From Raillietiella orientalis (taxonomy: Eukaryota): 64,000 nt of DNA. The notes beneath the pieces were generated by a model. The model ran no database searches. It saw only the letters and a program-made list of their open reading frames with translations, and was not told where the DNA came from. Below are positions 22,728-57,107 of this stretch, in pieces (position 1 is the first letter of the stretch; the number at the start of each line of letters is the position of its first letter). The stretch lies in contig JAYWIR010000028.1 in NCBI GenBank assembly GCA_036172245.1, positions 2,666,001 through 2,730,000 on the forward strand, in the 5' to 3' direction. The position numbers and the translations under genes were made by a program.

Positions 22728-25700
22728 ATGGAAGAAGACATGCAAGTACCATATGAAAATGAATGTGACAGATTTTCAAAAGATAGTACAAAAATGTGCA
22801 TATCAACCGGTGATGATTCTCAAGTCTGTTTTGCTGCTGATTTTTCTTCAAAAGATTTACCAGTATCTCTGTCTGCTCCTTTTAATTTAACCTCAGCAAA
22901 GAACTTTTTCAATGATCTGACCAATGAAAAAATCAAAGTCTTCCAGTTCCACGATGCAAGTAGGAATTCAAAATCTGATGATTCATCACTGTCAGGTAGT
23001 AGTCTAAATGTTTTTGCCTTTCATAAATGTATGAGTTGGATGGATGGTGGATTATAATCTTTACCAATTCAGGTGGATTATCATCTTTAAATGGAGGAAT
23101 GGTGAATGCTGTAAAGAAAAATTATGGTTCAGCTGATGAATTATCTTGTGATTTGCAGGATGAGCAGTCCTCTGATGAGGAAAAACATATGAGTTTGACT
23201 AGGAGTAAGTGCTATGCAAGAATATGTCATTTCATCTTTTCTGACTTTTTGGCTGCCTTGGGATTACAGTTTTTGGCAAATTGATTAAAATTGTGCTTTA
23301 GAAATTCCATTTATGGAATATTGCTTTTTATTCTGTTGTGTGATTCTTTTTATCACCTGCAGATTTCACAGCTGTTGCATGTGGTAATCAATAGATTATT
23401 CATTTGTAAAGCATTTGCTGTTTTGAAGGTTTTGCTTTGCAGTTGATTTTCATTTAACATTCCTAGTTAATCACTTAGAATCTGTGTTTCAATAGAAAGA
23501 AGATTGAACTCTATAAGTTAACGTTTGATGTGTGTGTGTGTGTGTGTGTTTTGTAGAAACTACAATATATCAATCCAAAAAGAAGAAGAAAAGCTTGGGG
23601 TGCATAGAAAATTCTCATGAAAGCTTTTTGGGGATGAGTCCCAGTATGTCATTGGCATCATATGGTAGAAAAAACACAGAAATGCTGCCTGACTGTCCAG
23701 TGAAGACTGAAATAGAAATGACTTGCAAAATCAACTCTTGGGTAAGACTAAAAATATTTATATGGAGAAATAAGGTCTGTAGGAGGAAACAAATTGCCTG
23801 GAATCCAAATCTGATTCACAACATAATAATTGCTTACCTCATTGTTTACCTGCTGGTTTGGAAACAGAGCAACTGACAACTTGTGAAACTCCTGTCATGG
23901 TAGTAATGATACTTGAGATTCTGGAAATGCTACTAATTTTGTAGCCACATCATTTGAGTGCTAGTACTAGCACCAGTGGTTTCAGTTCTTTTTCTCATGC
24001 AGCTGGTTCCAATCTGAGCCACAATGGTTCAGTTGCATCACAATACTCAACTCTCAGCGTGAGCTACTCCTCGGTGCCCAGCCCCAACAGTTCATCTTCA
24101 GCTGTTTTCACACCAGACCAGTCTCCAGCAGTCTCAAGACATGCTGCTATCACTACAGATTCTAGATTAACTCGGGATATTAACAATTCTTGGAACAGTG
24201 GAATGGTAACCACAGAGAATTCCAGTTCTCATATGCTTGTACTACCTCCTGGAAATGAGCCAATTATTTGTGGCACTCACTCTGGAAACACAGGATTTAG
24301 TTTTTCAGCTTCCAAACTGGATCTTCGTGATGATATTCAGTCTGATGGGGATGTTCCTCGATTTGACTTAATTGGTGGTAAGTCGGGAAGGAAAAAAAAA
24401 ATCTCTAAGTGATCCAAGAAACAGGTTCCCGACAATCTGTTGAAAGTTCTTCTATATCTGCTGGTAGTCCTTTAGGAATGGCAACTGGAGTGTCAAGGCA
24501 ACAGCTCATTAACAGTCCATGCCCTGTGTGTGGAGATCGGATCTCGGGGTTTCATTATGGCATTTTCTCTTGTGAAAGTTGCAAAGGGTTCTTTAAACGA
24601 ACAGTGCAAAACAAGAAAAATTATGTGTGCCTGCGAGGGGCCTCCTGCTTAGTGACTGTTGCTACTCGAAAGAAGTGTCCTGCCTGTAGATTTGAGCGCT
24701 GTCTGCAAATGGGCATGAAATTAGAAGGTGAGAAAACCTTACTACTGAAATTGTATTTCTGTCGTTTTGATAGCTATTCGAGAGGATCGCACTCGAGGTG
24801 GACGCAGTACTTACCGCTGCTCTTATACATTGCCATCAGGAATGTCATCTCAAGTGGGGAGTCCTGAATCCTACTTAGGAAAATCATCTCCTGTTCCCAG
24901 TCAGCCACTTACAGAAGGGACTACAACTTGTGAACCACCTTCTCAGTCGCTATCGTTTTTGCCTTCACATTTTCCTGAGAAAGTAGGACCTCATTCTGAT
25001 GCTAGAAATCAGCCTGAAAAGGAACATGTGCCCCATTTACTAGAGGTATAAAAGTTCCGGAATTTGCTTGACTGAATCTGTTATCCAGCAAATTTGGTCA
25101 GTGGAACATTTATGGCATTGCCAGGATCAGGGATGTGGTGGAGATGGGTGGGAAAGTCCTAGTGCTTCCTCGCTCAAGAGCATAGCAGATGTCCGGTTGT
25201 ATAAGATTGTCAAGTGGTGTAAAAGTCTACCTCTGTTTCATCATATTTTGGTATTGCTACTGGTTTGTTAGACAGTCTTTAAATCCAATTTTAGATTGAT
25301 GATCAAATATCCCTTTTGATTCATGCTTGGTGCAAGCTGCTGCTGTTCAGTTGTTGCTATCACTCTGTGCCTACTCCAGGTCATATCCGAGTGTCCCAGG
25401 TCAAATCTATGGATCTGCAACAAGCACGAGCTGAGAATGTGGGACCATTTATTGAACGCATGCTTCATTTTGCAGACAATCTTAGAAGGCTACAAGTGGA
25501 CCAGTTTGAATTTGTTGCTCTAAAAGTGATCATTCTTTTAACTTCTGGTGAGCAGGAATAGCATATTGACTAATAATGTTGTTTCCATAGATAGCAGTGA
25601 ATTAAAAGAGCCAAGCAAGGTTAGGGAATCCCAGGAAAAAGTGCTTCATGCTTTACAATTGTATACACAAGCTACTAAATTTGGTGAGCTATTGCTCACC

Positions 25701-33800: not shown

Positions 33801-36800
33801 ATTTGTTTTTTTAATTGTTTTTAGTTTTTTTTGTGGTTGTATCATGTGCAGTATGCAAAATAGTTCTGTGGTATTTCAAGGTTAAAATTAAGTTGTACTG
33901 CTCGATTTAATTTCAGTTTATTTGTTCATTTTTATGTACTTAAATAAAATTCTCTTTATATATCAGCATATAAACTTTGATCATGATGATTATAAGGCAA
34001 ATGCTTTCCAATATCCTCATTGTATTGTCTGATTGCAGCATCTATTGTATGTGCTTCAAAATGGATGGAACTCAATTGTTGGTGGGTGCTGGTTCCAAGG
34101 TTTTAGTTTATGAAGCAATAGATGGAACATTAATACAACCTTTAAAAGGCCATAAAGGATTTGTGTTGGCGATTTCGTATTCTCATGATGGGAACAAGTT
34201 TGCTTCAGGAGGTTCAGACAAAAGTGTTATTATCTGGTCATCCAAATTGGAAGGCATTTTGAAATACATGTGAGAACTTCTGCATCTTTTGAGGGTATGA
34301 TCACCACTTTTTAGGCATAGTGACTCAATACGTTGTTTACACTTTAATCCTGTTTCCAATGAGCTTGCAAGTTGTTGCTTTAATGACTTTGGTTTGTGGT
34401 CACATGAAGAAAAATCTGTACAGAAATACAAGTGTGCTTCTCAGATTTATTCTTGTTGCTGGACAAATGATGGTCAATTTCTAATACTGGGACTTGGTAA
34501 TGGAGTTATTTCAGTCCGAAAAAAGGTTTGTAACTTATTTGGGTATTTTTATGGAAATTTCTAAGGATGGGGAAGAAAAACTCAAGATTGAGAGACCAGG
34601 AGGCAATGCTTCACCAATTATTGGTGTAATCTGTAATCCTAATAGGTATGTATCCAAAAATTTTCATTGTTTTCAGTCTGTGCTTTTAAGTGTTGATTCG
34701 TATCCTCTTTTGAATGCTGTGGATTTGGATCAAAGATTGTATTTCTATTTATTAAATGGGAAACAGGTTGGTTGATCCTGCTGAGATTTGATTTCCAATT
34801 GCATTGTAGATAGGGCGAGCTAAGCATCTTGGATTTCATCCTTGTTTTTTTAATATATTTCCTAATGGGGAATATCTTCTGATCGGTGGTTCCAACAAGG
34901 CTTGTTGTTTGCTTTCTAAAGAAGGCATTTGGCTTATGCAGTTTCTGGAACATTCAAGCTGGATTATCTCAGCAGCAGTGCATCCCAGTAATAATAGCAT
35001 AGTAAGTAGCTTTGTAAAAATAGGAATATAAGGTTGAGTTTTTTGTGGGAATTTCGGATGTCAAATTTTAAAATCAGGCAACATGTGATGTTTCATTTAC
35101 AAATGCACTGTTTCTTGTATTTGGTTATCTGATATTAATTTTGTTGAAAAAAAAATCGAATTCTAGTGTACATCATTCTCTTTTTTAGGCCATAGGTACT
35201 CAAGATGGAACTGTTGCATACTATCAGTTAATATTCGATACCGTCCATAGTCTTTTCAAGGAACAGTATGCTTACAGGTGCGAAGATTATTTCTTGCTAT
35301 ATTTCTGTTTCCTGTTCTTTTATCAGAGAGGGAATGACTAATGTTATTGTTCAGCACTTAATTCATGATAAAAAGATCAACATTAAGTGCCGTGATCTAG
35401 TTAAAAAAGTAGCAATCTACAAAGAACAGTTGGCTGTGCAATTACCTAGACAAATAGTAGTGTATGATCTGGATTGGAGCCAGCAAGAAGGCATTCTTTA
35501 TCGTGTCCGTGAGCGGATCCCTATGCAGTTTACCTGTAGTTTATTAGTAGTGTGTTCAAGAAATATAGTGCTGTGTGAGGTTGACTATCATTATGAGAAA
35601 TTAGATGTTTATGTATGCCTTTAAGGCAAGTAAGCTTCAATCACTCAGCTTCCAAGGATTCAAGTGCATGGAATGGTTTCTTCCTTCTCCTATTCGTTAC
35701 ATAAAAGTATTAGGTGGCTTACCTGAGCAAGAGAGCTTACTTTTAGGACTCAAAGATGGACAGGTAGGAATCGATTGTATTACTAGTAGATCTGATACAA
35801 TTAATAAAAAGATTTTGAAAATCTTTTTGGATAATCCCTTTCCATTAAGGCTAATACAAGCACCATCTGCAGTGTGTTTTTTGGATTTGAGCCCCTTGCA
35901 ACAGAAATTAGCTGTAGTGGATGAAAGTAGCACATGTTTTGTGTACAATCTAGCAGATGGTCAACTTATGTTTCAAGAAGTACATGCTAATAGTGTGGCA
36001 TGGAATCTTCAACATGATGATTTACTCAGTTATTCAGGCAATGGTTTTCTATGTATTAAAGCAGCTAATTTCCCACCTCAGCAGCAAAAGCTCGAGGTAT
36101 GGAACTCCCAGAAAACATCAAGTCATCTCTGTGTAGGGATTTGTGGTTGTGTTTTCAGGGTCACAGTTGTTTTGTCTTCAAGGAAATGATATGGTCACTG
36201 TAGAAGTTCTCTTATCTGCTTTCATGATGCAGTATTTGGATCACAGCATGTTTATGTAAGTAATTATTTAATTGGCAGTATCATCAGGAATTTTGCAGGC
36301 AAGCATTTGAGATTGCTTGTTTAGGAGTTACTGATGCTGACTGGCAACAGTTGGGTATGCAAGCCTTAAAAGTAATGAATCTAGAAATCAGTCACAAAGC
36401 ATTCAGTCGTATTTGTTCATTACCTTTTTTAGATTTGCTCGACGAGGTGCAGGTAAATTTATGATTCCTCATATCAGTAAAAATGCTAACCAGATTTAGG
36501 CTAAGAAGGGACACAGCGAGAAAATAGATAAAGATCTTGTGCAAGCAGAAGTACATGCTTATCTGGGAGAATTCGAAAGTGCTGCACTTCTATATCAGCA
36601 GTGTGGTCATGAGCAGAAAGCTGTGGATATGTATTCAGATTTGCATATGTTTCACCAAGTGCAGGTTTGTAGTGATACAAGTTTTTTTCCATGTTTTTTT
36701 TGTCAGAGATTATCACAGTCAAAAGATACGAACAATGAATGTAAATTGTTGAAACAAAGAGCACAATGGGCTCTGAATATTAGTGAACCTCGATCAGCTG

Positions 36801-38616
36801 CAATGTTGTACATGAATGCAAAAGATTGGAAGCCAGCCATAGAGCTAGCGATCGCTAATGATTGGATTGAACTGTAGGACATGTGTTATTTTAGATCACA
36901 AATATCTTTGCTAGTTTGCTGGACATAACTCATAAGTTGAATTTTGAAAATGATTCTGAAAAGCAGTTATTGAGGAATTGTGCTGACTATTTGCACCAGA
37001 AACATCATGTGCAATCTGCTGTTGACATATATAAGAAACTACATGATAGCAGAAGGTAGGTTGACAGCGCGAGTGGAAGATTTAAGTATTTCATCAGTGA
37101 AGTCTCTGTCTACATCATGCATAAGCAGTGGGATAAAGCTCTTCAGTTAGCAAAAGAACATTCAGAAATCCAACCAGAAGTGCATCTTCATTATGCAAGA
37201 TGGTTGACAGAATCAGATATGTTTATGGAAGCACAAGAAGGTGTGACATGAGAATAATCACATCACTAGAAATATGAAAATGCTCTTCCATAGTATTTCA
37301 TGCTGCAGGGTATCCTCAAGAAGCAAATCATGTTCTGAAACAACTGATAAAAAATGCTGTGAATGAAGGACGCTTTTCAGATGCAGCCTATTATTATTGG
37401 GTTCTTTCTCAACAAGTGTTGCAGGAATCTGTTAACAGGTTTCTGTGCAAAAAGACTAGCTTTTTCATTATATGCAGTAGACAGAACAGCCATGAGGGAG
37501 TCAGCAAATTTAAAGAGTACCAGAAAAGAGCAGAATTTTTCTACGCCTATCATTCCATTCATCAGTTTGTGGTATGTAATATAAGATATGAACTAAGATG
37601 TCATATCAGCAAAGATGGAACCTTTTACTACTTTCTTACCTGAAGCTTTGTTTAACATGGCACGGTACTTGTACAGTGAGTTGCAGAAGACTGAATTGCA
37701 AGAAATCTCTGAATTGTATCCTTTTGCTTCAGTTTTTGGACATTTTTATTCTGAATTCCATGTAGCGCAATCTTGTATTCTCTTGCCAAACAAAGCATCC
37801 GATTAGGTGCTTTCAAGCTAGCTCGGAAATGCTTGCAAAAACTGCAAAATCTTCTGATTCCATCACGTTATCAGGTATTTGTTATGGAACTATCGTTCTA
37901 TTTCGTATCTCAGGATGCAGTTGATTTGGATTCAGTTTTGATCCAGGGGAAGCCTTTGCTTGACAATCAACAATTATATCCATTTTGTTATCAATGTACC
38001 AATACCAATCCAATTCTCCATGTTACAGGGAATTCATGTTCACATTGCAAGCAGCATTTTGTGTATTCTTTCATTGCTTTTGGTTAGACATATTCCATAT
38101 GCTTGCAGCATGAACCATTTGGATGTTTTAGAAATATTGCCACTAGTAGAATTCTGTGTTGACCAAACTCTCACTGATGAAGAAGCCATACATTTCATAC
38201 AGATGCAACCGGATTCCATAAATGAACAAGAGCCACAATTTGAGTCTTTGAGTATGTTCCAAAAGAACTGTAATCAGACTGCACATAATGAAGAGGTAGG
38301 TTTTCTGATTATCTTGCTAATAATGCAGTGCATATAGTGTTGTAAGAAGAATTTACTCATCATGAATAGAGAAATGCTCATTTCTCTTGATCCTTCTGTT
38401 GTCTTCATTAGTAAATGGCAGTTTCCTTTACATTATAAGTACTATAGAAATACAATGCCTGAAATGGCAATCAGCCAGTGCCTAAGTTGTTTTAAGGTAG
38501 TCATGCAGATCTGAATGGCTAATTTTTTTGTTTTTTAGTTTTTTTTAGCAGAAGATTATGAACTTCAACTTCTTCAAAAAGGATGTTGTCCCTTTTGTCG
38601 CTCTTCAAAATTCTAA
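30808..38616 (+). CDS. IFT122: Intraflagellar transport protein 122 (IFT-A core), 24 coding exons
   Basis: Exon 1 (30808-30866) [12 protein letters not shown]...VEQ splices in frame to [19 protein letters not shown] at 34039. Conserved blocks: [38 protein letters not shown]...[44 protein letters not shown], and terminal [17 protein letters not shown]. Stop at 38614-38616. Confidence 0.95.
37716..37765 (+). other. U12-type (minor spliceosome)-like GT-AG intron in IFT122, 50 nt
   Basis: The donor GTATCCTTTT matches the U12 5' consensus. Removing the intron joins [15 protein letters not shown] in frame. The candidate branch site TTCTGAAT about 10 nt before TAG is degenerate. Confidence 0.7.
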
Positions 38617-43425: not shown

Positions 43426-46400
43426 ATGGCCGATTACATTGATAAAGAGGCCGAAGAAAGTGAAGAAGAGGTTGAGGAGTACGATGAGGATGAGAGAAGG
43501 AGATTGAAAAAGCTCAGAGAGGAAAGTGAAGAGGAGGATATTGAAGGTACACATACTTTTCTATTATTTAAAACTGGTATTTCAGTTAGAGATCACGTTG
43601 AAAGTCAGCATTAAAAGCTTTTGGATGTTTCAATTTTTTAGGTATTCATTGATAAGACGCTTTATGTTTAATTCATTTTTACTATTTGATTTGGAGATCT
43701 TTCTCTTCTAAAGCATTTTAAAACTATTTTCCAGTGTATTTCCATATGTTGTGTTTAATGATAATTTCTACCACATGCAGGTAATGTGTTTTATTTACCT
43801 TTTGCTTCTTGGTAGAGAGTAGTGCATTTAGCAGAAAATAATTTCGTGCTATGAAAGTATGCTTACACAGTAGTAGTTTTTATAATGTTGTGTACTCGTA
43901 AACGGTAAGCGATTAAATTTTATTTTATTGGTTTTTTTTCTTCTTTTTAATGGAGTTGTGCATGTTAATCCATAAGGAAACATGCGCTAGAAGAAAATAC
44001 GGAAAGAAAATAATTCAGACTAAAAGAAGCAGTTAAAATCTTATAGTGTTACTGACAAGTTACAGCGTGGGGATTATCTTTCCGATATAATTTAGCACAC
44101 GATCGTAGTGGTTGTTAGATTCAGTAATGATTGCTGTATGCATCACTAACTGAAGACAGTATGATCACGGCTTAAATATTTAGCCTATAAGTTCATTTCT
44201 TTTTCATTCATGTGCATGTTTTCTAATAAGATAGAGATATTTTAAAATATTGGGTGTAATTCGGTTTTTGTTTGAAGAATACTAACTTTTGACTGGATCC
44301 GAAAAACATTCAAGATAACAATGAATAAAAGAGACACATTGAATATTTCCAGATATAGCATTCATTCAGAAGTGGATCCAAGTAAACCCTGTATTAAGAG
44401 TACCCTAGAATTATGTCGTAAAATATTACCCATGCACAAAGATGAATGATTTCCATTTAAGTTTTCTTGTTGACACTAACTTATTTTTGATATTTTTAGT
44501 CCTAACTTTTTACATTGTTGAGACATTCAGTGATCAGTATTAAAATGTGATCTCATATGCACGAAACATTTTGTGTAAATGTCTATAGTTACATAAAATT
44601 TGGTTTTAAAATGTAAATATTATTCGTATGAGAAAAATAAGAATATGAAAAAGAAGACAAGAAAAATGTAATTAGTGCCTGACAGCAGGTAATCGTATTA
44701 AATATCAGAGCAAAAAAGTGTAATTAATGATATTTCATGATTGGGGATAAAAGCGTAAGAAATATACATGTATGCTTGTATAAAATACATAATAAAAATG
44801 CATACGAATTTGTATTGGTTGTTTATTAAATGTTAGTGATTTCTGTTCGCTTGCAGAATGAGGAGCATTTTAAAAGTTCTTACTTGCCCAAGAGAACTAG
44901 CTTTTATGAAATAAAGTGGTTTGTTATTCATAAGTTTATGTTACTTGTACTTATATGCACTGAATTTTGGAAAGCTTGTGGGCTAATTGTTCCAAGACTA
45001 GATCTTTGAATGAATGGATTTGCAATGGATGTAATCTGTCATTTACTTTTGAGTTGTATTTCTAATGGAATGCATTTCTGGATTATTAGTCATGGTTTTT
45101 TAGTTTTTTATCAGCCATATTTGGTCAGTTTTATATCATGACCTTGTAAGCATGATTTGTAGTTGCTAATTCACCATTAAACATTAGTGTTTAGTTTATA
45201 AAAGTTAGAAAGATTTAAACTGTGATAACTGAGCCATTTGAGGAAGTGACGTGTGATATTAATTTTGTTGAACACTGTTTTTGTTCATTTGACATTTTTA
45301 TTTTGCTGTAATTATCCTTCACACAAATGTAAAAAAAAAAAGTGATCCAACAGTTTTTTTTTGTTCTTAGATGATGAAGAACGTCTTCAAGAAGAATTAA
45401 AGGATTTGATTGATGACAATCCTATTGATGATAGTGATAGCGATCGGGAAAATAATAAACGTAAACGGTATGCTGATGAAGACGATTATGACAATCTAGA
45501 TGATCATTTGGATGAAGAGGATCTAGATTTGTTAGAAGAAAATTTAGGGGTGAAGATCGATAGGGTAAGTGGAGATCCTTTGCTTTATCTTGCTTTATTG
45601 CTTAGAAAGCCTATTAATTTTAATTACAAACTTCTATGCAATTGTTGTATGCTCAGAAACACTGGATGGAAGCAAATTGTAGATTTTCTTCAGTTATTTG
45701 CTTGCAAAAATAGCTATTGTACTTGTGTCTATTTTATTATTTTACTTTTAAATAACTGAAAGTTGTGTTTCTGATTATGCATTATAAGAATTTCAGTTTC
45801 TTTTTTGAAGACTTTTGAATGAAGCTTTTTGAGGCTTTTTTTGAGACCTTTGGATGGTTAAATGAAGTAAGAATACCATGATCTGTGTTTATGTTAATTC
45901 TAAGAGAACTTGTGTGAATCTTTTGATATCTGTAGCTGTCTTTTTGGCAATTAAATTAAACAGCACTATTGAGAGTTTTTCTCTGGATCTTGCATGTATT
46001 TTCTCATTTTTCAAAAAGTAAGACGGTAAAGTATTGTTTTCTTATGGTGCTAATGTTTCTTTGTTTCCTTATTTTTGTAAACCATATCAGAGGTGTCACT
46101 CCATGAAATTTCCTTTGAATTCTTAGAATTCATAGGAGTGTAGATTTTGAGTTATGGTTTGGGTAGCATTTAAAGCTAATGGATTTTCTTTTTTTTTTTT
46201 TCAATGATGGTGACAAACAGCTTCAATTTCAATGTATGAATTAAACACACAAATTGAATGCTAATCCTGAAAGGGAATGTGTTAGTAATTGGTTACATCA
46301 TAATATATTCATTGTTAGGTACCTGTTTTTTGTTTTGAATAGGTCGTGTTTATTTTTCTAGTTGAACATTGCTTTAACTATGAAAGTTCTGATAACTGCA

Positions 46401-49400
46401 GGAATTCGCTTCACAAAAATGAGTTTTTCATAGTTATTTAATTTGGTTTTGTTTTTCCTGCGTACTTTGTTTCTATGCCTTTTGGTCGGATTTGTCGAAT
46501 CACAAGTGTTTTTCCTAATGTGCAGTTAGTATGTTCTCTCAGACATTGGTTTCTAGTTTTTATGAATATCTATTAAGTGTATCCACCCACAGAATCTGAT
46601 CTGTCTCATATTATGGGCTTTATATAAACTTTTCTCCTTTTAAAATCTAATTATGTCCATAAAAATGTGTTTGGGTTATTCAAGATATGAATTCACATAA
46701 TGAATAATTGCAGTCAAAGTTGATTAGTTTTGTAAGGATTGTTTGCTTCACGTTTATTTTATGATTTCATTTAATGAAATCAAAATTGTAGTGACTTTCA
46801 GCTATATTACAGTGGTGTGTTTTAGTCTCTGTCCTTTGTTGAATAACTTTGATGATCAGTTTTTTCTAAATGCTGTTAGTAGCTATCCAAATTATGTCAG
46901 TTTCTTTTTGTCAAAATGGTACTGCTTTTGGCTTGCTGGTAATATAATAATTGTTTGTAGAATTTTTTTAAAATCAAATTGCTGCCTCATCTTATGTGAG
47001 TTAAATTAATTTCCTATAGTTTAAGTTTATTTTTGTATTTATTTTTGGACCCATTTGAAATTTAATTGAAATTTCATTTCTTGGGAAGCATAAATGTAAA
47101 TTGAAAATTTTGTGGTGTCCTGTTTTTTGAGGAAAAATAAAAATTCAATTTTTTTTTCATTTCTCAGTTAGCAAATGTCCTTAACAATATGATTGTATTT
47201 TTAGTAGTTTATTAACAATGTGGTTCTATTTTGAAGTTGTTTGTATACGAATGTTTCTTTCTAGCAAAAACGATTCAAAAGATTAAGACGGATAGAAGAT
47301 GCAGAAAGTGAAGATGAGCATCATAATGATGCTGAGGCTATTGCCAGTGAATTATTCGATGGCTCAGAAGAGGTAAGTATTTTTATTACTGAATCCAAAT
47401 GTATATTGATTTCGTGGTTATTTTAAGGATGATGACAAAGTCAAAGAAGAGAAGGATGATACTGATTTTCGAGAAAGATCAGATTCGGATGCTGATTATT
47501 CAGAAACCGATGACTTTATTGTTGATGATAAAGGAAGGCCAATCAATAGGCAGAAAAGAAAAAAGCATATTTTTACGGATGCGTGAGTATTTTAACTATG
47601 TTTTGGACCAATTTTAACAATTCCTTCAGTGCTCTTCAGGAGGCTCAAGATATTTTTGGCGTGGATTTCGATTACAATCAGTTTGATAAATATGATGGTG
47701 ACTATGATGAAGATATGGAAGAGGAAGAAGAGTATGAAGAGGAGGAGGATGTAGATAGGTACATTTGTGAAAATATCTATAATGTGTAAAACCTATCTTG
47801 CAGACCTAAGCCTAGAAGGTCGCGTAAAAAAAGTACACGTAAATCAATTTTTGAGCTCTATGAGCCAAGTGAATTGGAAAGAGGGCATTTCACTGATTTG
47901 GATAATGAGATTCGCATCACTGATTTGCCTGAACGTATGCAATGTCGTGCAATTCCTGTTACAGCTGCAGAAGAAGGCAGCAATGAGTTAGAAGAGGAAG
48001 CTGAATGGATTTATAAACATGCATTTTGTACACCACCCATCTCCAATCAGGTGAATAGAGAGAGATGAGTTGAGAGTTGCAATCATTTGCATAGGAGCAG
48101 TACCTAAGTGAGCGTAACAAACGAAGTTCCCATCTACCACATAAAATTCGCAAAGTACTAGATTTATTGAGGAATCAGTCATTGGAAGTTCCATTCATTG
48201 CCTTTTACCGAAAGGAATGTGTGCTTCCAGAACTTTCCATTAGTGATTTGTGGAAAATCTACCATTATGATGAAAAGGTAAGTTCGGTGAATGCTGTGTT
48301 TTATGTGAGAGAAATCATGCATTGTAGTGGTGTCAACTTAGAAGTAGAAAGAAAAATTTACTGAAACTTTTTGAAAAAATGGAGCAGTACCAAGCTTCAC
48401 AAATTTTGAAAGAGCCCAGCAAACCAATTCCAGACAACATGAAATTGGTTAAATCAGAAGATATGGAGAGGTACAATTATTTCTATTTGAAATTCTTTTA
48501 TGTTTGTGTAGATTTAGGAACATTGAAACCGTCGAGGAATTAAAGGATGTATACAGTTACTTTTTGCTGCATTATAGCCATGATATTCCTGGATTGCAGC
48601 ATTATAATCAACAAAAAAAATTGCAAGAAGATAAACTCAAGTTTAGAAGTAATAATGTTATGGATGTAGACGAAGAGGATTCCAGAAAAGAAGCAGAGGA
48701 TGAGTCAGAGCAAAACCACAAAGAGTTTATGGAGGAACTAGGAGGCCAGGATTCCATCAAGCAGGCGGTACGAAGAGATCCGTATAGTATTTTTCGTCGA
48801 GCAGGACTTGGTTAGTAGAAGGTGTACAATATTCAGAAAGTATCCAATGTTTTCAGAACGCCTGGTTCAAAGATTTGGGCTGACTCCAGAGCAGTTTGGT
48901 GAAAATCTTCGTGATAATTATCAGAGACATGAAGTAGACCAGGATCCCTGTGAGCCACTAGAAGCAGCCAAAGAGTTTGTGTCCAGGTGAAATTTACATA
49001 TTCGGTTGTGCTTGATATTACTGGATTCATCTTAAAGTCTTCTCCCAAATCCCGAAGATGTTTTGAAAGCAGCTCGTTTCATGGTGGCAATGCAGATTAG
49101 TTGCGATCCTACAGTTCGCAAATGTTCGCGTGAAACCTTCTATGAGAAAGCTGAAATCTCGGTAACACCAACGAGAAAAGGCCTTAAAGAAATCGATGAA
49201 AATCACTTCTGTTTTGGGTATGTTTCTGTGGCTTAGTTTTCTCCCTTTCTCTAATTGTATCATTTAGGATGAAATACTTGCATGAAAAACCAGTTCGTGA
49301 CTTAACTGGTGATCAGTTCCTAAAATTAGTGATGGCAGAATCCGATAAATTGATTACACTGAAAATCGGACAGAATATTCGGGGGAATATGAGCAATTGC

Positions 49401-52400
49401 TATTTGGAAGAGGTCAAGCAATATTATTACAAAGTAAGAGCTCTTACATGTAAAGGCTCTTTTTCATAACCACCTTCCTGCATAGGATGAATTTAGTCAT
49501 GCTGTACAAAAATGGAATTCTTTAAGAGGAGAAGTATTAGATGTTGCTTTTAACAGTCTTTTATTCCCTGTGTTTCGGAAAGAGCTCCATGCTCGGTTGC
49601 TAAATGAAGCTCGTCAGTGTATTCAAAATTTGAGTGCAAAAAAGCTGGCTAGTTGGCTGAAAGTAAGGTCAGACTCTTTAGTGGAATGTGTAACATTTCT
49701 CCTTTAGGTAGCACCATATAGCATTGAATACCCAGATGAGGAGGAAGAAGAATGGGATACCTCTAAAGGATTGAGAGTGATGGCTCTGGCATACAGTTTG
49801 GATGTTCAATTTGCCCCCTATTGTGCTTTGGTTAATCCTGAAGGTGAATGCTCATCGTTCCTTAAACTTTCCCATATTTTGAAGATGAAAAATTCCTGGA
49901 AGGAAGAAGATCGAATGGGAAAGGTTAGGCAAACAGGCATTTGAATGTAAAATAATTGTTATTTAGGAAAAAGATTTTGAATCAGTGAAAAACTTCGTAT
50001 ATAAGCACAAACCTCATGTCATCTGTATAAGTGGAGAATCTCGAGAGTCTGTGATGTTACTTAAGGATCTACAGGATATAGTTTCCCAACTGGCTGAAGA
50101 AGAGCAAATGCCACAGATTCCTGTTGAACTAGTGGACAATAATTTAGCCAAAGTCTTCGCCAATAGCATTCGGGGCGAGGTGGACATTAAGATCTTTCGT
50201 GTTTTCTCAGATAAAAGTTTTGTTTTCATTTCAGACTGAATTTCGAGATTTTCCTCCTCTGCTTCGTCAAGCAATTTCATTGGCTCGTCGCATCCAAGAT
50301 CCTCTGGTGGAATTTTCTCAGCTCTGTACAGTTGATGAGGAAGTAGTTTGTGTACAGTATCATCATTTGCAGGTGTGATTGAATTTATTTCTCCGATTTT
50401 TAATTTCATTTTGGGGATAGGATCAGTTGCCTAAGGATGCTTTGTTGGAGGTCTTGTACGAAGAATTTATCAACCAAACAAATGAAGTGGGCGTAGACAT
50501 TAATAAAGCTCTAGCTTCTATGCATGTAGCCAACTTGGTGCAATTCGTTGCTGGACTTGGCCCAAGAAAGGCTGCAGCCCTCTTAAAAACGTTGAAACAA
50601 GGAGGTTCTCGGCTCGAGAACCGTACACAGTTGGTCACTGTGTGTCATATGGGACCAAAAGTGTTCATCAATTGTGCTGGCTTCATCAAGATTGATACCA
50701 GTTCTCTAGGAGATAGGTGAGTGTGCAAATTCTTGCAGATTTTGCAGTTTGATCTTTTCTTAGCACTGAAGCATATGTGGAAGTATTAGATGGTTCTCGT
50801 GTGCATCCGGAGACGTATGAGTGGGCTAGGAAAATGGCTGTTGATGCCTTAGAGTACGATGAGATGCAGGAAGACACAAATCCAGCTGGGGCTTTGGAGG
50901 AGATTTTAGAATCTCCTGAGAAACTTAAAGATCTGGATTTGGATGCTTTTGCTGAAGAGCTTGAGCGCCAAGTAAGTAAGAATGCAAAGCAGAATCCATA
51001 AAGACAGTAATTCTGTAAGGGTTTTGGCAACAAAAATATCACTCTATATGATATTCGAGCTGAGCTGACTCATCGCTATAAAGATCTTAGAGTCCCATAC
51101 CAACCGCCCAATCCTGAAGAATTATTCAATATGCTCACCAAAGAAACCCCTGAAACTTTATACATCGGAAAAATGGTCTTGGCATATGTGACAGGTAGAT
51201 CATGTTTGGATTGTGAAATTACTGAATTCTGCTCAGGGATTGCTCACAGAAAACCTAAGGGCGAGCAGTTAGATAAAGCAAACCCTGTACGCAATGACGA
51301 AAATGGAATGTGGCAGTGTCCATTTTGCCTAAAGAGTGATTTTCAGGAGTTATCAGAAGTAAATCGTTAACAACCACGATAATTTCTTTGTTATTGAGAA
51401 CATGTCTTTGGTAGGTTTGGAACCACTTTGATGCAGGATCATGCCCTGGTCAGGCAGTTGGCATTCGTATTCGTTTGGATAATGGGATCCATGGTTTTAT
51501 CCCTATAAAATTTTTATCTGATAATAATGTTTCCAATCCTGAAGAACGAGTGCAAAGAGGTCAAGTCATCCATTGCCGTATCACAAAAATTGATGTAGAG
51601 AAATTTGCTATTGAGTGTACTAGTCGCAGTTCAGATCTGCTTGATAAAGATAATGAATGGAGGTCAGAATGCGTTGCAAAGTGCTTAACTGATATGGCGT
51701 TTCAGACCACCAAAAGATCTGTTTTATGATTATGACACTGAGGCCAAGGATTCAAAAAAAGAAGAAGATAAGAAAAAAGCCCAGATGCGTCAAACATATA
51801 TTAAACGGGTTATTGTACATCCATCATTCCACAATATTAACTTTAAAGAAACAGAAAAACTGTTAAATAGCATGGAGCAAGGAGAAGTGGTTTTTCGACC
51901 TTCCAGTAAAGGATCTGATCATTTGACTGTGACTTGGAAGGTCACTAATGGCATTTACCAACATATTGATATCCGTGAGGAAGGAAAGGAGAACGTTTTT
52001 AGTTTAGGGCAGTCACTTTGGATTGGTGAGATACAGTTCTATGCCTCCGGTTAACGAACTGGACATTTTAGAAAATGAGGAATTCGAAGATTTGGACGAA
52101 ATTGTTGCACGGCATATCAATCCTATGGCATCACACGCCAGGGATCTTCTTAATTTTCGCTATTATCAGGACACAGGTGGAGGGAATCGAGATAGAGCAG
52201 AAGAAATCCTGAAAGACGAAAAACGAAAAAATCCATCAAAAATACATTATTTTGTTTCGGCCTCCAAAGTACAAGTGCTTCCATTTTTAACCATTTTTAT
52301 TGAAAATTATTTTTTAGGAGTTGCCTGGAAAATTTATGCTATCTTACTTACCTCGTCAGAAACCTCGACATGAGTTCATAACAGTAACTCCTGAAGGATT

Positions 52401-54852
52401 TCGATTTCGTAATCATGTATTCGAAACTATTAATTCGTTGTTTAAGTAAGTTTTTATAAGTTTTCGATGTATTCACTGATGTCTTCTTTTTTTTTTTATT
52501 TAGGTGGTTCAAGGAGCATTTTCGGGATCCTATTCCACATACTCCCAATACACCCAAAGGAACACCCTTCTCCAACACGCACACGCCTTGCTATTCTGGT
52601 AAAAGTAAAATTGCAGGGTTGTGATGTTTTATGCATGCATTACAGTTGCTACTGGTATAATTCAACAAGGTCCTGGAATTCCAGATGCAGCACTTTTTAA
52701 CACACCACACTATTCTCACACCCCTGGTACTTATGGTGGTGCATACAGTTATGTGAACACTGTGAGTGCGAGAACTGATATATAAGAAATTAATTCTTTT
52801 TTGACCTCAGCCATACACACCCTCAGGACAGACCCCCTATATGACACCTTATCATACGCCTCATAATGCTCAAACACCTAGATATGGAGCCTCTACGCCG
52901 AAGTCGCATCCTTTTGTTCCAGGACCACATACCCCACTGAAGGAACAATTTTCTGTTCAGCATATGCCCAGAACCCCTAACCAGATCAGCACTCCCAACT
53001 GGCAAAGAACTCCGGATTCTTGGTCGAGCCAGAGGGGAAGGGGAGGACGAAGAAATTTTCGGTATTATTTTGTTGAATAATTGCTTTATGATTTGAATTC
53101 GCAGAAGTACGGGTCGATTTTCTGGCCAACCACGTGGTGGTTCCAAGTATCATCATGCTTCATATGGTGGAAAGAGTAGTAAGAGAGATCAACATAGTAT
53201 CTCTCATGATGGTGCTACAGCATCGTGGGCACCTTCATCTGCAACACACAGTGATGCCACTCCTCTTCACGATGAAGATGAATGGGCATCCTCTAACATG
53301 GAAACATCAGTTCAAAAATCAAATGATGAACAACATGCTTCTGCTGCAAAAGATCAGGAAGATGAGTGGGGTCCAGCTCCTGGCACTCAGAGTGCAGAAT
53401 CAACTGAAAAGGAAGCCCAGAAATCTACATCTGGTACTGTCCCTGACAAGGTAAGATGCCCCTAATAAACATCAATGTGCATGTGCATCTGGTTGAATTC
53501 ACAGCTTGCACATATGGATGAATGGTGCGATGATGATCCTAAGTCATCCAATGTTGACAAAAATGGATGGGATGGACGTGAAAAATCTGCTTCTAAGGTT
53601 CTATTGAACTTTAATGCCTCATTCTTATTCCAAACCTAGATGGACGAGTGGAATGATGACAGGCCATCGTTATCAGACGTGAACAAAGAGTCTGAGAAAT
53701 GGTGGGCACCTCCAGCAAGCCCTAAATCATTTCAGAAAGATGACTGGAGCCAAAGAAATCGCTCCACAGGAAAACGGTTTGGGGATCGAGGCCGATGGCA
53801 TAGGACGTCGAGTTTCCAAAAACGTGAACAAGATGCTGAATGGGGAGGATCTCAGAAAAATCAGTGGAGATCACCATCAGCCAACGCAACTTCTGATCGG
53901 AGTTCTGGTTCCAATTGGCAAAGGAATTCGGATTCCTGGTCCTCACAGCGAGGGAGAGGAGGACGACGTCATTTTCAGTATGTAAACCTGTCAGGACAAA
54001 TATGTATAGTCCATGTTTGTCAGTAGAAATTCCGGTCAATTTTCTGGCCAATCTTCCAGCAGTTCTAAATACCACCATACATCCTCATTTGGTGGGAAGA
54101 GTTCTAAAAGAGAACAATATAATTTATCTCATACTGATGACAATGTGGCTTCATGGGCACCCTCTCAGAGCAATTCTACTCCACTCCATGATGAAGATGC
54201 TTGGGAAAGTTTCAATCCGGATTCGAGCACTCAAAGTTCTAGCGGACATCAACATGCATCCACTGCAAAAGACCAGGAAGATGAGTGGGGTCCAGCTCCT
54301 GGCACCCAGAGTGCAGAATCAACTGAAAAGGAAGCCCAGAAATCTACATCTGGTACTGTCCCTGACAAGGTAAGATGCCCTTAATAAACATCAATGTGCA
54401 TGTGCATCTGGTTGAATTCACAGCTTGCACATATGGATGAATGGTGCGATGATGATCCTAAGACATCCAATGTTGACAAAAATGGATGGGATGGACGTGA
54501 AAAATCTGCTTCTAAGGTTCTATTGAACTTTAATGCCTCATTCTTATTCCAAACCTAGATGGACGAGTGGAATGATGACAGGTCACCATTATCAGACGTG
54601 AACAAAGAGTCTGAGAAATGGTGGGCACCTCCAGCAAGCCCTAAATCATTTCAGAAAGATGACTGGGGACAAAGAGGGCGTTCTTCTAGCAGAAGATTCA
54701 GTAATAGGGGAAAATGGAACAAGACATCCAGTTTTCAAAAACGGGAGCAAAACAGTGAATGGGGAAGTTCACAGAAAAATCAGTGGAGAACTCCACCTGT
54801 TAATGCTGCTACTAATGATGATGAATGGGGTTCACCACCATCATTTAAATAA
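43426..54852 (+). CDS. SUPT6H: Transcription elongation factor SPT6 with an unusually long C-terminal extension
   Basis: Acidic N-terminus [120 protein letters not shown]; tandem SH2 region [11 protein letters not shown]...[27 protein letters not shown]. Two long 5' introns (43547-45370, 45565-47264) are followed by many 41-58 nt GT-AG introns, and the frame stays open to TAA at 54850-54852. Confidence 0.95.
52995..54852 (+). repeat. Intragenic tandem duplication (~0.92 kb unit, 2 copies, 3 introns each) in the SPT6 3' end
   Basis: Unit 1 ~52995-53910, unit 2 ~53911-54852. The core offset is 919 nt (intron donors at 53451/54370 and 53598/54517). Confidence 0.95.
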
Positions 54853-57107
54853 ATCTTATATAAATTTATTATTTAATCGTGAATTTTTAGATTTATTGTT
54901 ACGTAGATGCTAGGAAAGTTATAAGCAGTTTTATAAGTCTATTCAGTCATTTGATGAGAAATTGCAAAATCTAAGCACTTAAAGAAAATTTAAAATAAGA
55001 TGGCCCCGGAGTCCCCCGTGCTATTTTTTTTTTCTTGTTTTATTTAGAATCTAGTGCAAAGTTTAACAGCATTGACCCGGAAGTGTGTTGTGGCTTATGC
55101 AATGTACAAAGTTAATGATCAGAATTTGTAAATTAAAATGTGACAATAAAGGAATATTTTTTTCATGTCTGTTTATATATTGATAAGTAAATACGGAGAA
55201 ATGTGTTAAAAAAACCGGAGATAGCCTTGGTTGGTAATTTTTAGATCAGGTAATGTTTACTGACCACCCCTATATAGTCACCATTTCCCCAGATGACCGC
55301 TCGGATGGGCAAAAGAAGTACCCAGTACAGTCCAAATATGTTATGACCAAAATGGCAGAACTCTTTGATTTTATTTGTACCTTATAAATTGCAAATTTCT
55401 TCATTAGCTCTTTAAGAACGATAATTTTACCTAAGACAGTGTTAATCTATAAATGACGGAAAACGTAATAATCTACAAACAATAATCAGCATAAGCATTC
55501 ACAATTAGCAAAACAAGATTTCTCAGAATTTTCATACACAGTTTTTTACAAAGTTTTGCAATTCTTATATGTCATTTTTGCTGGATAATTAGGATTAAAC
55601 TGATTAAGCTGTTTTTCCGAACAGTTCTTTGTGTAGCTTGTTTGCAATTAATACTGCTAGCTAATGCACTTCTGTTATTGAATCAGGAAAAAAATTGCCG
55701 TGCAAACAATTTGGAAACATTATGACAGCAGCTGTTGCTTCCATAAAGCTTTATGATACTCAGAACAATCTGTTCTTAACCTTTCTATCTTCGACCCAAT
55801 ATGTCGAAAGCATGTACGAAACAAAAAAATACTGGGTACTTTTTCCACATATTGCTTTACGTATTTAATGTTCATACCTTTCCGCTGACGTTCGGTTTAC
55901 CGTCTGTGATTGTAATGGTGGGAAAGAGACCTATAGCTTATGAATGATACGACTGCAACATTTTCAGACTGAATATGTATAGAAGTTTCCATCAAAAGAC
56001 CCGGGCGCTGAGGACTCCGAAATATTAACCGGCTAAAAAACAGCGTTTATGCAGACCCAACTTATGTATTTATATAAAATATATAAGACCGCCTTATAGA
56101 CTTCCCTCTGGGAATGCCAGCTTAATTCCTACTGCACAAGGAGAGAAAAAAAAACACTCCCCATACTCAAACTAAGTTTGAAACTATCTAAAAAGAAAGT
56201 ACGTTCAGAATTTTAGGTTGTTATGAGCATCGTAAATCAAACACCAACTTAAATGAAAACTGCCTGCAGACCGTGTTCAACTTGAATGTTACGTCAAGAA
56301 TAAATAGAAATAAATTTTTAAAAATTGGAGCTTTTTGTCACAGAATTGTAATTACAGCTGACACTCGGACGACCCTTGCAGTCTGTGATCAATAACAGAT
56401 GCATAGATATCAAAATCGATTGTTTTATTTGTTTCTGTTTATTTTGGTTTGTTTACCACGTGTAGAAAAATCCAAATATGACTGGTAATTGGATGGTTGA
56501 GAAATGGAACTCGAAGTTTTGGTGTCCGTTGGACTGAATGCGTTTCGTCAAACTGCATTAGCAGAATGGAATCGTGGAGTTCACGTATTGTTCTCGAGTA
56601 AAGTTGGTTTCTTTAATGAAAACACGTCGTACTGCGTGTACGAAAGACTACATTAGTTTCGAATGAACTGATTTACTAATATTCATGTTTTCGATACATT
56701 TGATTTTGTTATTCAGTGCCCGGCTATTGACAATTTCAGTATCAACGTTGCTTTTATGCATCAAAGACATACTGAACTTGTGCACTCCTAGAGATCCACG
56801 AGTCAAGGAATCAAAAACAAGCAAAATGACCGTACAAAACGCTTCTGCAACATAACGAAATTTGCAACAACCCGTATCAGGAGCATGTATGTCTTTGTCC
56901 AAGAAGTATCAGTGATTTAATTGGGAAGCGTGCATTTTACGTAGTCTACAAAATTAGTCCAATAACAAAATGAAAACAGTAAGTCATAGAAAAAAAAGGA
57001 AAAAAAACAATCAAGGAATTGGTCTAGATAAAGTTTACTTTAATTCCACTTGCAATCTGATATACATTTCATTCTCTTTAATTCGCTAAAATTCGCATTT
57101 GCACTTG

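Follow-up and report, generated by a model that had tools for sequence, protein, structure and literature searches.

Within a 64,000-nucleotide stretch of the Raillietiella orientalis genome (hereafter the window; contig JAYWIR010000028.1 of assembly GCA_036172245.1, positions 2,666,001 to 2,730,000), the forward strand encodes an animal homolog of the elongation factor SPT6. The body of the gene (45346–52761 of the window, to which all coordinates refer) was delineated with Pfam and tblastn. It specifies an acidic N-terminus, then YqgF, HHH, S1, and tandem SH2 domains, and finally the first part of a Thr-Pro-rich (TP-rich) region, all interrupted by many short introns. Its C-terminus departs from the canonical one, as 445 residues follow the motif DATPLHDE (53253–53276), and this Trp-rich tail is the subject of our report. 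Plants use Trp-rich Argonaute hooks on SPT6L, SPT5L, and RNA polymerase V to connect small RNAs with transcription, and a tail of broadly similar appearance on an animal SPT6 raises the question of what it might bind.

The identity of the gene is well supported. Successive exons match the Pfam families YqgF-like (PF14639), HHH_7 (PF14635), S1 (PF00575/PF21710), and SH2_2 (PF14633), which is the domain order of SPT6. By tblastn, residues 101–1683 of a centipede SPT6 (1733 aa) are colinear with 47253–53026, and the best protein matches are arthropod SPT6 sequences, with 77% identity in the SH2 exon and 55–59% across the gene. These domains and matches bear out the assignment to animal SPT6 made in a preliminary description of this DNA. 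Protein searches with the SH2 exon and with the whole gene recovered no close relative. Orthology with streptophyte SPT6L was ruled out, as both the SH2 exon and the whole gene best match SPT6 from arthropods or other animals and the tail matches nothing. We estimate a full-length protein of roughly 2100–2200 residues.

A continuous reading frame leads from the SH2 domain into the tail through exons 52504–52598, 52646–52761, and 52811–53061. The last of these holds the TP-rich region and a first W-x6-W/RGRGGRR element, with NWQRTPDSW beginning at 52997 and RGRGGRR at 53033–53053. Downstream of DATPLHDE, the preliminary description had placed five introns, and our reading of the sequence agrees with each of them in position; all run from GT to AG and preserve the reading frame. 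Splicing yields 445 codons that end with TAA at 54850–54852 and encode 26 Trp, six WG and two GW dipeptides, and an RGRGGRR motif at 53949–53969, again as described there. A sixth intron, absent from that account, lies just upstream of the tail (53062–53104; 43 nt, GT..AG, phase 2).

The exon that follows (53105–53450, which we call exon A) carries DATPLHDE and then DEDEW and QEDEWG. It contains no stop codon after DATPLHDE, and a product of canonical length therefore cannot come from it. A 54-nt phase 0 intron (53451–53504), in which an in-frame TAA occurs together with AATAAA at 53464, separates it from exon B (53505–53597), a symmetric phase 0-0 exon of 31 codons that includes the motifs MDEWCDDD and NGWDG. 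After a 42-nt phase 0 intron (53598–53639) comes exon C (53640–53977), which runs without interruption into a second W-x6-W/RGRGGRR element, NWQRNSDSW beginning at 53913. The arrangement then recurs. A 46-nt phase 2 intron (53978–54023), the counterpart of 53062–53104, precedes a second exon A (54024–54369) with a second end-type motif, NSTPLHDE (54172–54195). This is followed by a 54-nt phase 0 intron (54370–54423; in-frame TAA, AATAAA at 54383), a second exon B (54424–54516), a 42-nt phase 0 intron (54517–54558), and a second exon C (54559–54852), whose stop codon is overlapped by AATAAA (54848–54853). Other stop-free stretches overlap the tail, two on the same strand in other frames (53092–53454 and 53897–54373) and one on the opposite strand (53722–54084). 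We take these to be by-products of composition, since the third-position excess reported below supports the annotated frame only.

Growth of the tail by tandem duplication, also foreseen in the preliminary description, is apparent from direct repeats spaced 916–919 bp apart over the whole region. What was not recognized is that the duplicated segment comprises the last ~260 codons of the gene, with unit 1 at 52997–53912, unit 2 at 53913–54852, and the junction inside the exon 53640–53977 (at approximately 53905–53915). Each unit consists of the W-x6-W/RGRGGRR element, then (D/N)(A/S)TPLHDE, then a Trp-rich extension of ~186 residues. Each is spread over three exons encoding ~260 residues, and the intron phases match (2,0,0 in both). 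On a smaller scale, exon B repeats the beginning of exon C within the unit, the two sharing MDEWxDDxPxxSxVxK with a score that 0 of 500 shuffles reached. An older nested duplication, in which the extension would have been copied from the segment before DATPLHDE, was rejected, as 55 of 500 shuffles reached its score. A blastp self-comparison gave no off-diagonal matches.

Identity between the units forms a mosaic. Approximately 410 bp of unit 1 (53333–53740) is ~98% identical to a partner ~919 bp downstream (~54252–54659), including the two small introns within it (98–100%), whereas the flanking parts of the exons are 72–75% identical. The intron at 53062–53104 shares just 39% identity with its counterpart, its neighboring exons being at 73–75%. 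Synonymous divergence (dS) is 0.085 in the core and saturated in the flanks. Diverged flanks around a near-identical core, introns included, point to an old duplication followed by a later gene-conversion tract. An assembly artifact was rejected as the cause of the duplication because the flanks and the first intron are far too dissimilar.

The diverged portions permit an estimate of selection. Over 152 diverged codon pairs between the units, the proportion of synonymous differences (pS) is 0.71, which is saturated, and the nonsynonymous proportion (pN) is 0.225, for a ratio of nonsynonymous to synonymous divergence (dN/dS) of ~0.12. Differences at codon positions 1, 2, and 3 number 43, 31, and 75, respectively. 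Neither unit contains a stop or a frameshift, and the frame of unit 2 is intact over 265 codons. The low dN/dS, the saturated pS, the third-position excess, and the intact frames together argue that the second unit is translated. As judged from these substitutions, both units are coding and under purifying selection.

The tail is strongly enriched in Trp. The 26 residues observed compare with 6.3 expected from the base composition of the coding sequence (~4-fold; binomial p 2e-9), and relative to the 1.0% Trp of 120 other SPT6 proteins the p value is 1e-12. Statistics that pool both units overstate independence. Given the duplication, a fairer comparison takes a single unit, whose 186 aa include 12 Trp (p 2e-5). 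Asp or Glu directly precedes 12 of the 26 Trp, versus 17% expected (p 4e-4, a value overstated by the non-independence of the units), and Gly follows six. Trp spacing is mostly 7–34 residues, and many Trp have basic or neutral neighbors (GRWHR, GKWNK, NQWRS, KWWAPP). Rich in Ser, Asp, Lys, and Glu, the tail is close to neutral overall (74 acidic and 63 basic residues; net charge fraction 0.025) and contains 6.5% Gly. Its Arg-Gly (RG) content is small, amounting to one heptad and a few RG dipeptides per ~260 residues, with further R/G-rich stretches. A disorder prediction, as suggested in the preliminary description, classed the tail as disordered: mean hydropathy is 0.314, under the charge–hydropathy boundary of 0.422, and order-promoting residues make up 7.9%. 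AlphaFold2 modeled exon C with a predicted local distance difference test score (pLDDT) of 56.5, a predicted template modeling score (pTM) of 0.14, and a single short helix.

For comparison with other animals, we assembled 120 SPT6 matches of up to 2000 aa and ran a separate search over 2117–5000 aa; lengths of 2001–2116 aa were covered by neither. Animal SPT6 does normally end at D[AGS]TPLxDE, as had been stated. The motif was found by pattern in 105 of the 120 proteins, 104 of which stop 0–3 residues after it, while one odd model has 28 further residues. Among the 15 lacking a pattern match, four visibly end in a variant of the motif, and most others look like truncated or divergent models. 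Upstream, 113 of 118 animal SPT6 C-regions carry a W-x6-W motif that reads DW(R/G)K.AE.W and leads into basic residues. Trp is otherwise scarce: 107 of the 109 SPT6 proteins with a C-region longer than 150 aa have one to three, the exceptions coming from Daphnia and Chelonus. When aligned with canonical C-termini, NWQRTPDSW and DATPLHDE of R. orientalis coincide with these two motifs. The R. orientalis protein thus shares with canonical animal SPT6 a TP-rich stretch, the W-x6-W plus basic motif, and D[AGS]TPLxDE in identical order, but canonical proteins stop at the motif with their one to three Trp, whereas here the whole end module occurs twice.

The longer-protein search, with a 1209-aa SPT6 query, returned two matches, one from Daphnia and one a fungal fusion. 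In Daphnia magna SPT6 (2322 aa), the 795-aa C-region (~1530–2322) includes 22 Trp and 12 WG/GW; it combines ~20 Trp motifs of the DDWG type with RGG stretches and four CCHC zinc knuckles. The corresponding 90% cluster includes entries from D. magna, D. sinensis, and D. carinata (e.g., KAK4008393.1 and XP_032785043.2), as well as products of 2320–2321 aa on 7.3-kb contigs with an uninterrupted frame; because the frame fills the contig, we infer that these contigs are transcripts. As in R. orientalis, this is an arthropod SPT6 with an expanded, disordered, Trp-rich C-region in which RG-rich stretches lie beside Trp repeats. It differs in placing its repeats after the TP-rich region but ahead of GDATPLYDE, at which the protein still ends; in its units, DDWG or DWGxxADAW; and in the CCHC knuckles embedded in the region. 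It has no sequence similarity to the R. orientalis tail.

The second exception is an SPT6-like protein of Chelonus insularis (XP_034935114.1, 1944 aa) with 20 Trp in its C-terminal 427 aa. It repeats the theme of RG and Trp repeats, in two blocks each preceded by RGRGRGR. Unlike the R. orientalis tail, it lacks WG/GW, is built from SNDWKNSxxDAWPTG units (W-x7-W), and ends in NDTPLYDEK. With six W-x6-[WF] copies in Daphnia and eight W-x7-W copies in Chelonus, the repeats of both resemble a canonical W-x6-W motif that has been multiplied, whereas the R. orientalis extension is not built in this way. On this comparison of sequences, growth of Trp repeats in the SPT6 C-region is an event that arose at least three times, by different routes.

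The preliminary description had stated that no animal example was known. In the literature on the SPT6 C-terminus and on Argonaute hooks (supplements being outside the search), we likewise came upon no account of an animal SPT6 with a Trp-rich tail, nor did we find a paper describing the Trp expansion of Daphnia SPT6; the databases, however, hold the Daphnia and Chelonus expansions. The terms "tryptophan", "Argonaute", and "arthropod" are all missing from the searchable text of a 2026 survey of elongation factors (PMC13289920), and the accessible part of PMC10991848 assigns animals canonical SPT6 only, without an AGO-hook.

Searches with the tail itself were uniformly negative. Exon A gave no match in a word-indexed search of proteins of 203–2000 aa, and exon C gave none by phmmer against 1.84 billion representatives. 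A Protein Data Bank sequence search with exons A and C returned no match at E ≤ 10, and the best ESM Atlas score (0.78) was under the level of a usable lead. The sole match to an alignment of exon C, a metagenome locus (L001:6001–6078), was rejected as a chance MDEWNDDR on a bacterial-looking contig of 62% GC content with no SPT6. A tail of this kind is at least compatible with the lineage-specific origin implied by the independent graft of the preliminary description. From the gene's own sequence, we conclude that the extension of this animal SPT6 is real, translated, and lineage-specific.

To place the tail relative to plant hooks, we made our own implementation of the "dos" compositional score (Karlowski et al.), following Table 1 and the thresholds of PMC2910046, using the plant matrix and omitting the second (ics) filter; this scope applies to all dos values of our own. 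Significance begins at 6.99 half-bits, with 25–150 classed as "medium" and more than 150 as "strong" (PMC2910046). Such scoring had been proposed in the preliminary description. Four domains in the C-terminal part of the R. orientalis protein scored 9.1, 49.5, 11.5, and 33.9 half-bits, all above the significance threshold, with the best being "medium". Daphnia SPT6 scored 236.7 and 112.2 ("strong"), and the Chelonus protein has no dos domain because it has no WG/GW seeds. Across the other SPT6 matches of up to 2000 aa, the best score was 29.7 and the median 0. Arabidopsis GTB1/SPT6L is listed at 215.95 in the accessible text of PMC2910046. By this measure, the R. orientalis tail is hook-like but weak, and Daphnia SPT6 is as strong as the plant protein. 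A different criterion, at least three motifs with a Wsearch score of at least 6, is used for SPT6L in the portion of PMC10991848 available.

The parallel with Arabidopsis SPT6L (GTB1, At1g65440) and streptophyte SPT6L in general extends to the host protein, SPT6, and to the position of the addition, C-terminal to the tandem SH2. In both cases the addition is disordered, Trp-rich, built from repeats, and encoded by separate 3′ exons (PMC2910046 and PMC10991848, as far as their accessible text goes). The origins are independent, however. The R. orientalis tail has less Gly, fewer WG/GW, and acidic DEW-type contexts; its scores are 49.5 and 33.9 versus 215.95 for GTB1; and its extension lies beyond the canonical animal end motif, of which it contains a second copy. 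GW182/TNRC6, plant NRPE1, and SPT5L/KTF1 are similar in presenting disordered, multivalent arrays of Trp motifs, and the Trp spacing of the tail is compatible with the evenly spaced Trp pockets on human AGO2 described in the accessible part of PMC12477606. They differ in host protein and composition, and exons A and C of the R. orientalis tail have no Pfam match to Ago_hook, UBA, RRM, or any other GW182-family domain.

These observations suggest a likely history. An ancestor would have lost the stop codon after GDATPLxDE and gained a disordered, Trp-studded extension of ~186 residues. The last ~260 codons, comprising three exons with the W-x6-W/RG element, the end motif, and the extension, would then have been duplicated in tandem. 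Both copies would afterwards have been retained by purifying selection and partly homogenized by gene conversion. Functionally, the tail may be a multivalent platform of short Trp-anchored motifs that docks a partner with Trp-binding pockets. The SPT6 core and tandem SH2 domain would carry this platform on elongating RNA polymerase II (Pol II); the duplication would double the number of docking sites. We hold this Trp-motif platform, whether for Argonaute or for another Trp-pocket factor, as a tentative reading with a little under an even chance of being correct.

The choice of partner is less secure. By analogy with plant SPT6L, SPT5L, NRPE1, and GW182, the leading candidate is an AGO-clade Argonaute, although as a specific assignment this is rather doubtful; a Trp-pocket protein of the CCR4-NOT type is a possible second candidate. 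The preliminary description had also named Piwi. According to the accessible part of a 2025 survey (PMC12477606), metazoan proteins of the AGO clade conserve three Trp pockets that vary in the PIWI clade, which makes an Argonaute partner more likely to be of the AGO clade and Piwi a poor candidate. Taken as a whole, the earlier interpretation is partly supported: it stands for the anatomy of the tail and its tandem growth, and it is unsupported or needs qualification as to uniqueness, a Piwi partner, and a hook-typical composition. More broadly, arthropod SPT6 (in the R. orientalis lineage, Daphnia, and Chelonus) may repeatedly and independently have made its disordered C-terminal region into a multivalent Trp platform, in convergence with plant SPT6L. 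Such platforms would link elongating Pol II to an AGO-clade Argonaute or to some other silencing or decay factor that has Trp pockets. We regard this wider proposal as unlikely.

Several points weigh against an Argonaute-type docking platform. Only eight of the 26 Trp are in WG/GW, Gly is at 6.5% versus 21% in plant hooks (Table 1 of PMC2910046), and 12 Trp follow Asp or Glu; the "medium" dos class, moreover, holds many unvalidated proteins, as the accessible text of PMC2910046 indicates. Pfam searches with exons A and C of each unit (E ≤ 0.01) found neither Ago_hook nor any other family, and the searches described above detected no sequence relatives of the tail. In the diverged flanks, Trp columns are conserved between the units in 8 of 9 cases versus 91 of 143 for other aligned columns, a direction that fits a Trp-anchored function, but the excess is not significant (Fisher p 0.16). 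Finally, the splice junctions and the inclusion of the tail are read solely from the sequence and from what each paralogous unit has conserved of the other.

The acidic setting of many Trp raises the alternative that the tail is an extra histone-binding arm, its acidic–aromatic motifs resembling the peptides by which other chaperones and replisome proteins bind histones and extending the histone-chaperone activity of SPT6 behind the polymerase. SPT6 is itself a histone chaperone (PMC9177984 and PMC6347388, in the parts available). Related chemistry is on record, as Mcm2 and Pol alpha use histone-binding motifs with two conserved aromatics at a fixed distance and acidic flanks (accessible text of PMC6166128), and a Trp-containing "DWP" motif of BKRF4 binds H2A–H2B (accessible text of PMC9477414). 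The near-universal W-x6-W of SPT6 C-regions, multiplied in Daphnia and Chelonus, and the placement of 12 of 26 Trp after Asp or Glu would also be in keeping with such a role. The nearly neutral charge of the R. orientalis tail and its many Trp in basic or neutral contexts run counter to it, and we consider a histone arm unlikely, albeit the best of the alternatives.

A lower probability still attaches to a "sticker and spacer" region, in which RG/RGG and spaced aromatics would drive RNA binding or condensate formation without a single Trp-pocket partner. RGRGGRR opens each unit and more R/G-rich stretches follow, the expansions of Chelonus and Daphnia likewise pair RG-rich blocks with Trp repeats, and the predicted disorder and regular Trp spacing would suit this role; condensates are raised as an alternative function even for the plant SPT6L hook in the available portion of PMC10991848. 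Against this, RG content is small for a segment of this length, and the local contexts of Trp are conserved between old paralogs, which argues for specific short motifs rather than composition alone.

The weakest alternative is that the tail or the second unit lies largely outside the main protein through intron retention, intronic polyadenylation, or decay of a 3′ copy; shorter isoforms are possible, given the in-frame TAA and subsequent AATAAA in introns 53451–53504 and 54370–54423 and the stop that retention of intron 53978–54023 would introduce at 54024–54026, but this reading is very improbable in view of the intact, constrained frame of unit 2 with its third-position excess, the splice sites and intron phases conserved between units, the lack of any stop that could yield a canonical-length product from the DATPLHDE exon, and the ease with which AATAAA arises by chance in a 54-nt AT-rich intron, the two copies counting as one event because both lie inside the conversion tract.

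The neighboring genes in the window, on the same strand, are a nuclear receptor (zf-C4 DNA-binding domain, 24409–24864) and an IFT122 homolog (beta-propeller, TPR, and zinc ribbon, 35232–38084).

Together, these findings describe in R. orientalis an animal SPT6 whose long, Trp-rich tail has been kept by selection, and in no fewer than two further arthropod lineages this region has likewise grown by Trp repeats. Should the partner prove to be histones or another factor, the W-x6-W and GDATPLxDE motifs would still be marked as a functional module that evolution multiplies. The Argonaute question is directly testable in Daphnia, for which genetic transformation has been achieved according to the accessible text of PMC6235260. 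If any such tail binds Argonaute, animals would have converged on a direct connection of Pol II elongation to small-RNA effectors, and with it on a small-RNA route to co-transcriptional regulation for which plants provide the only examples described so far.

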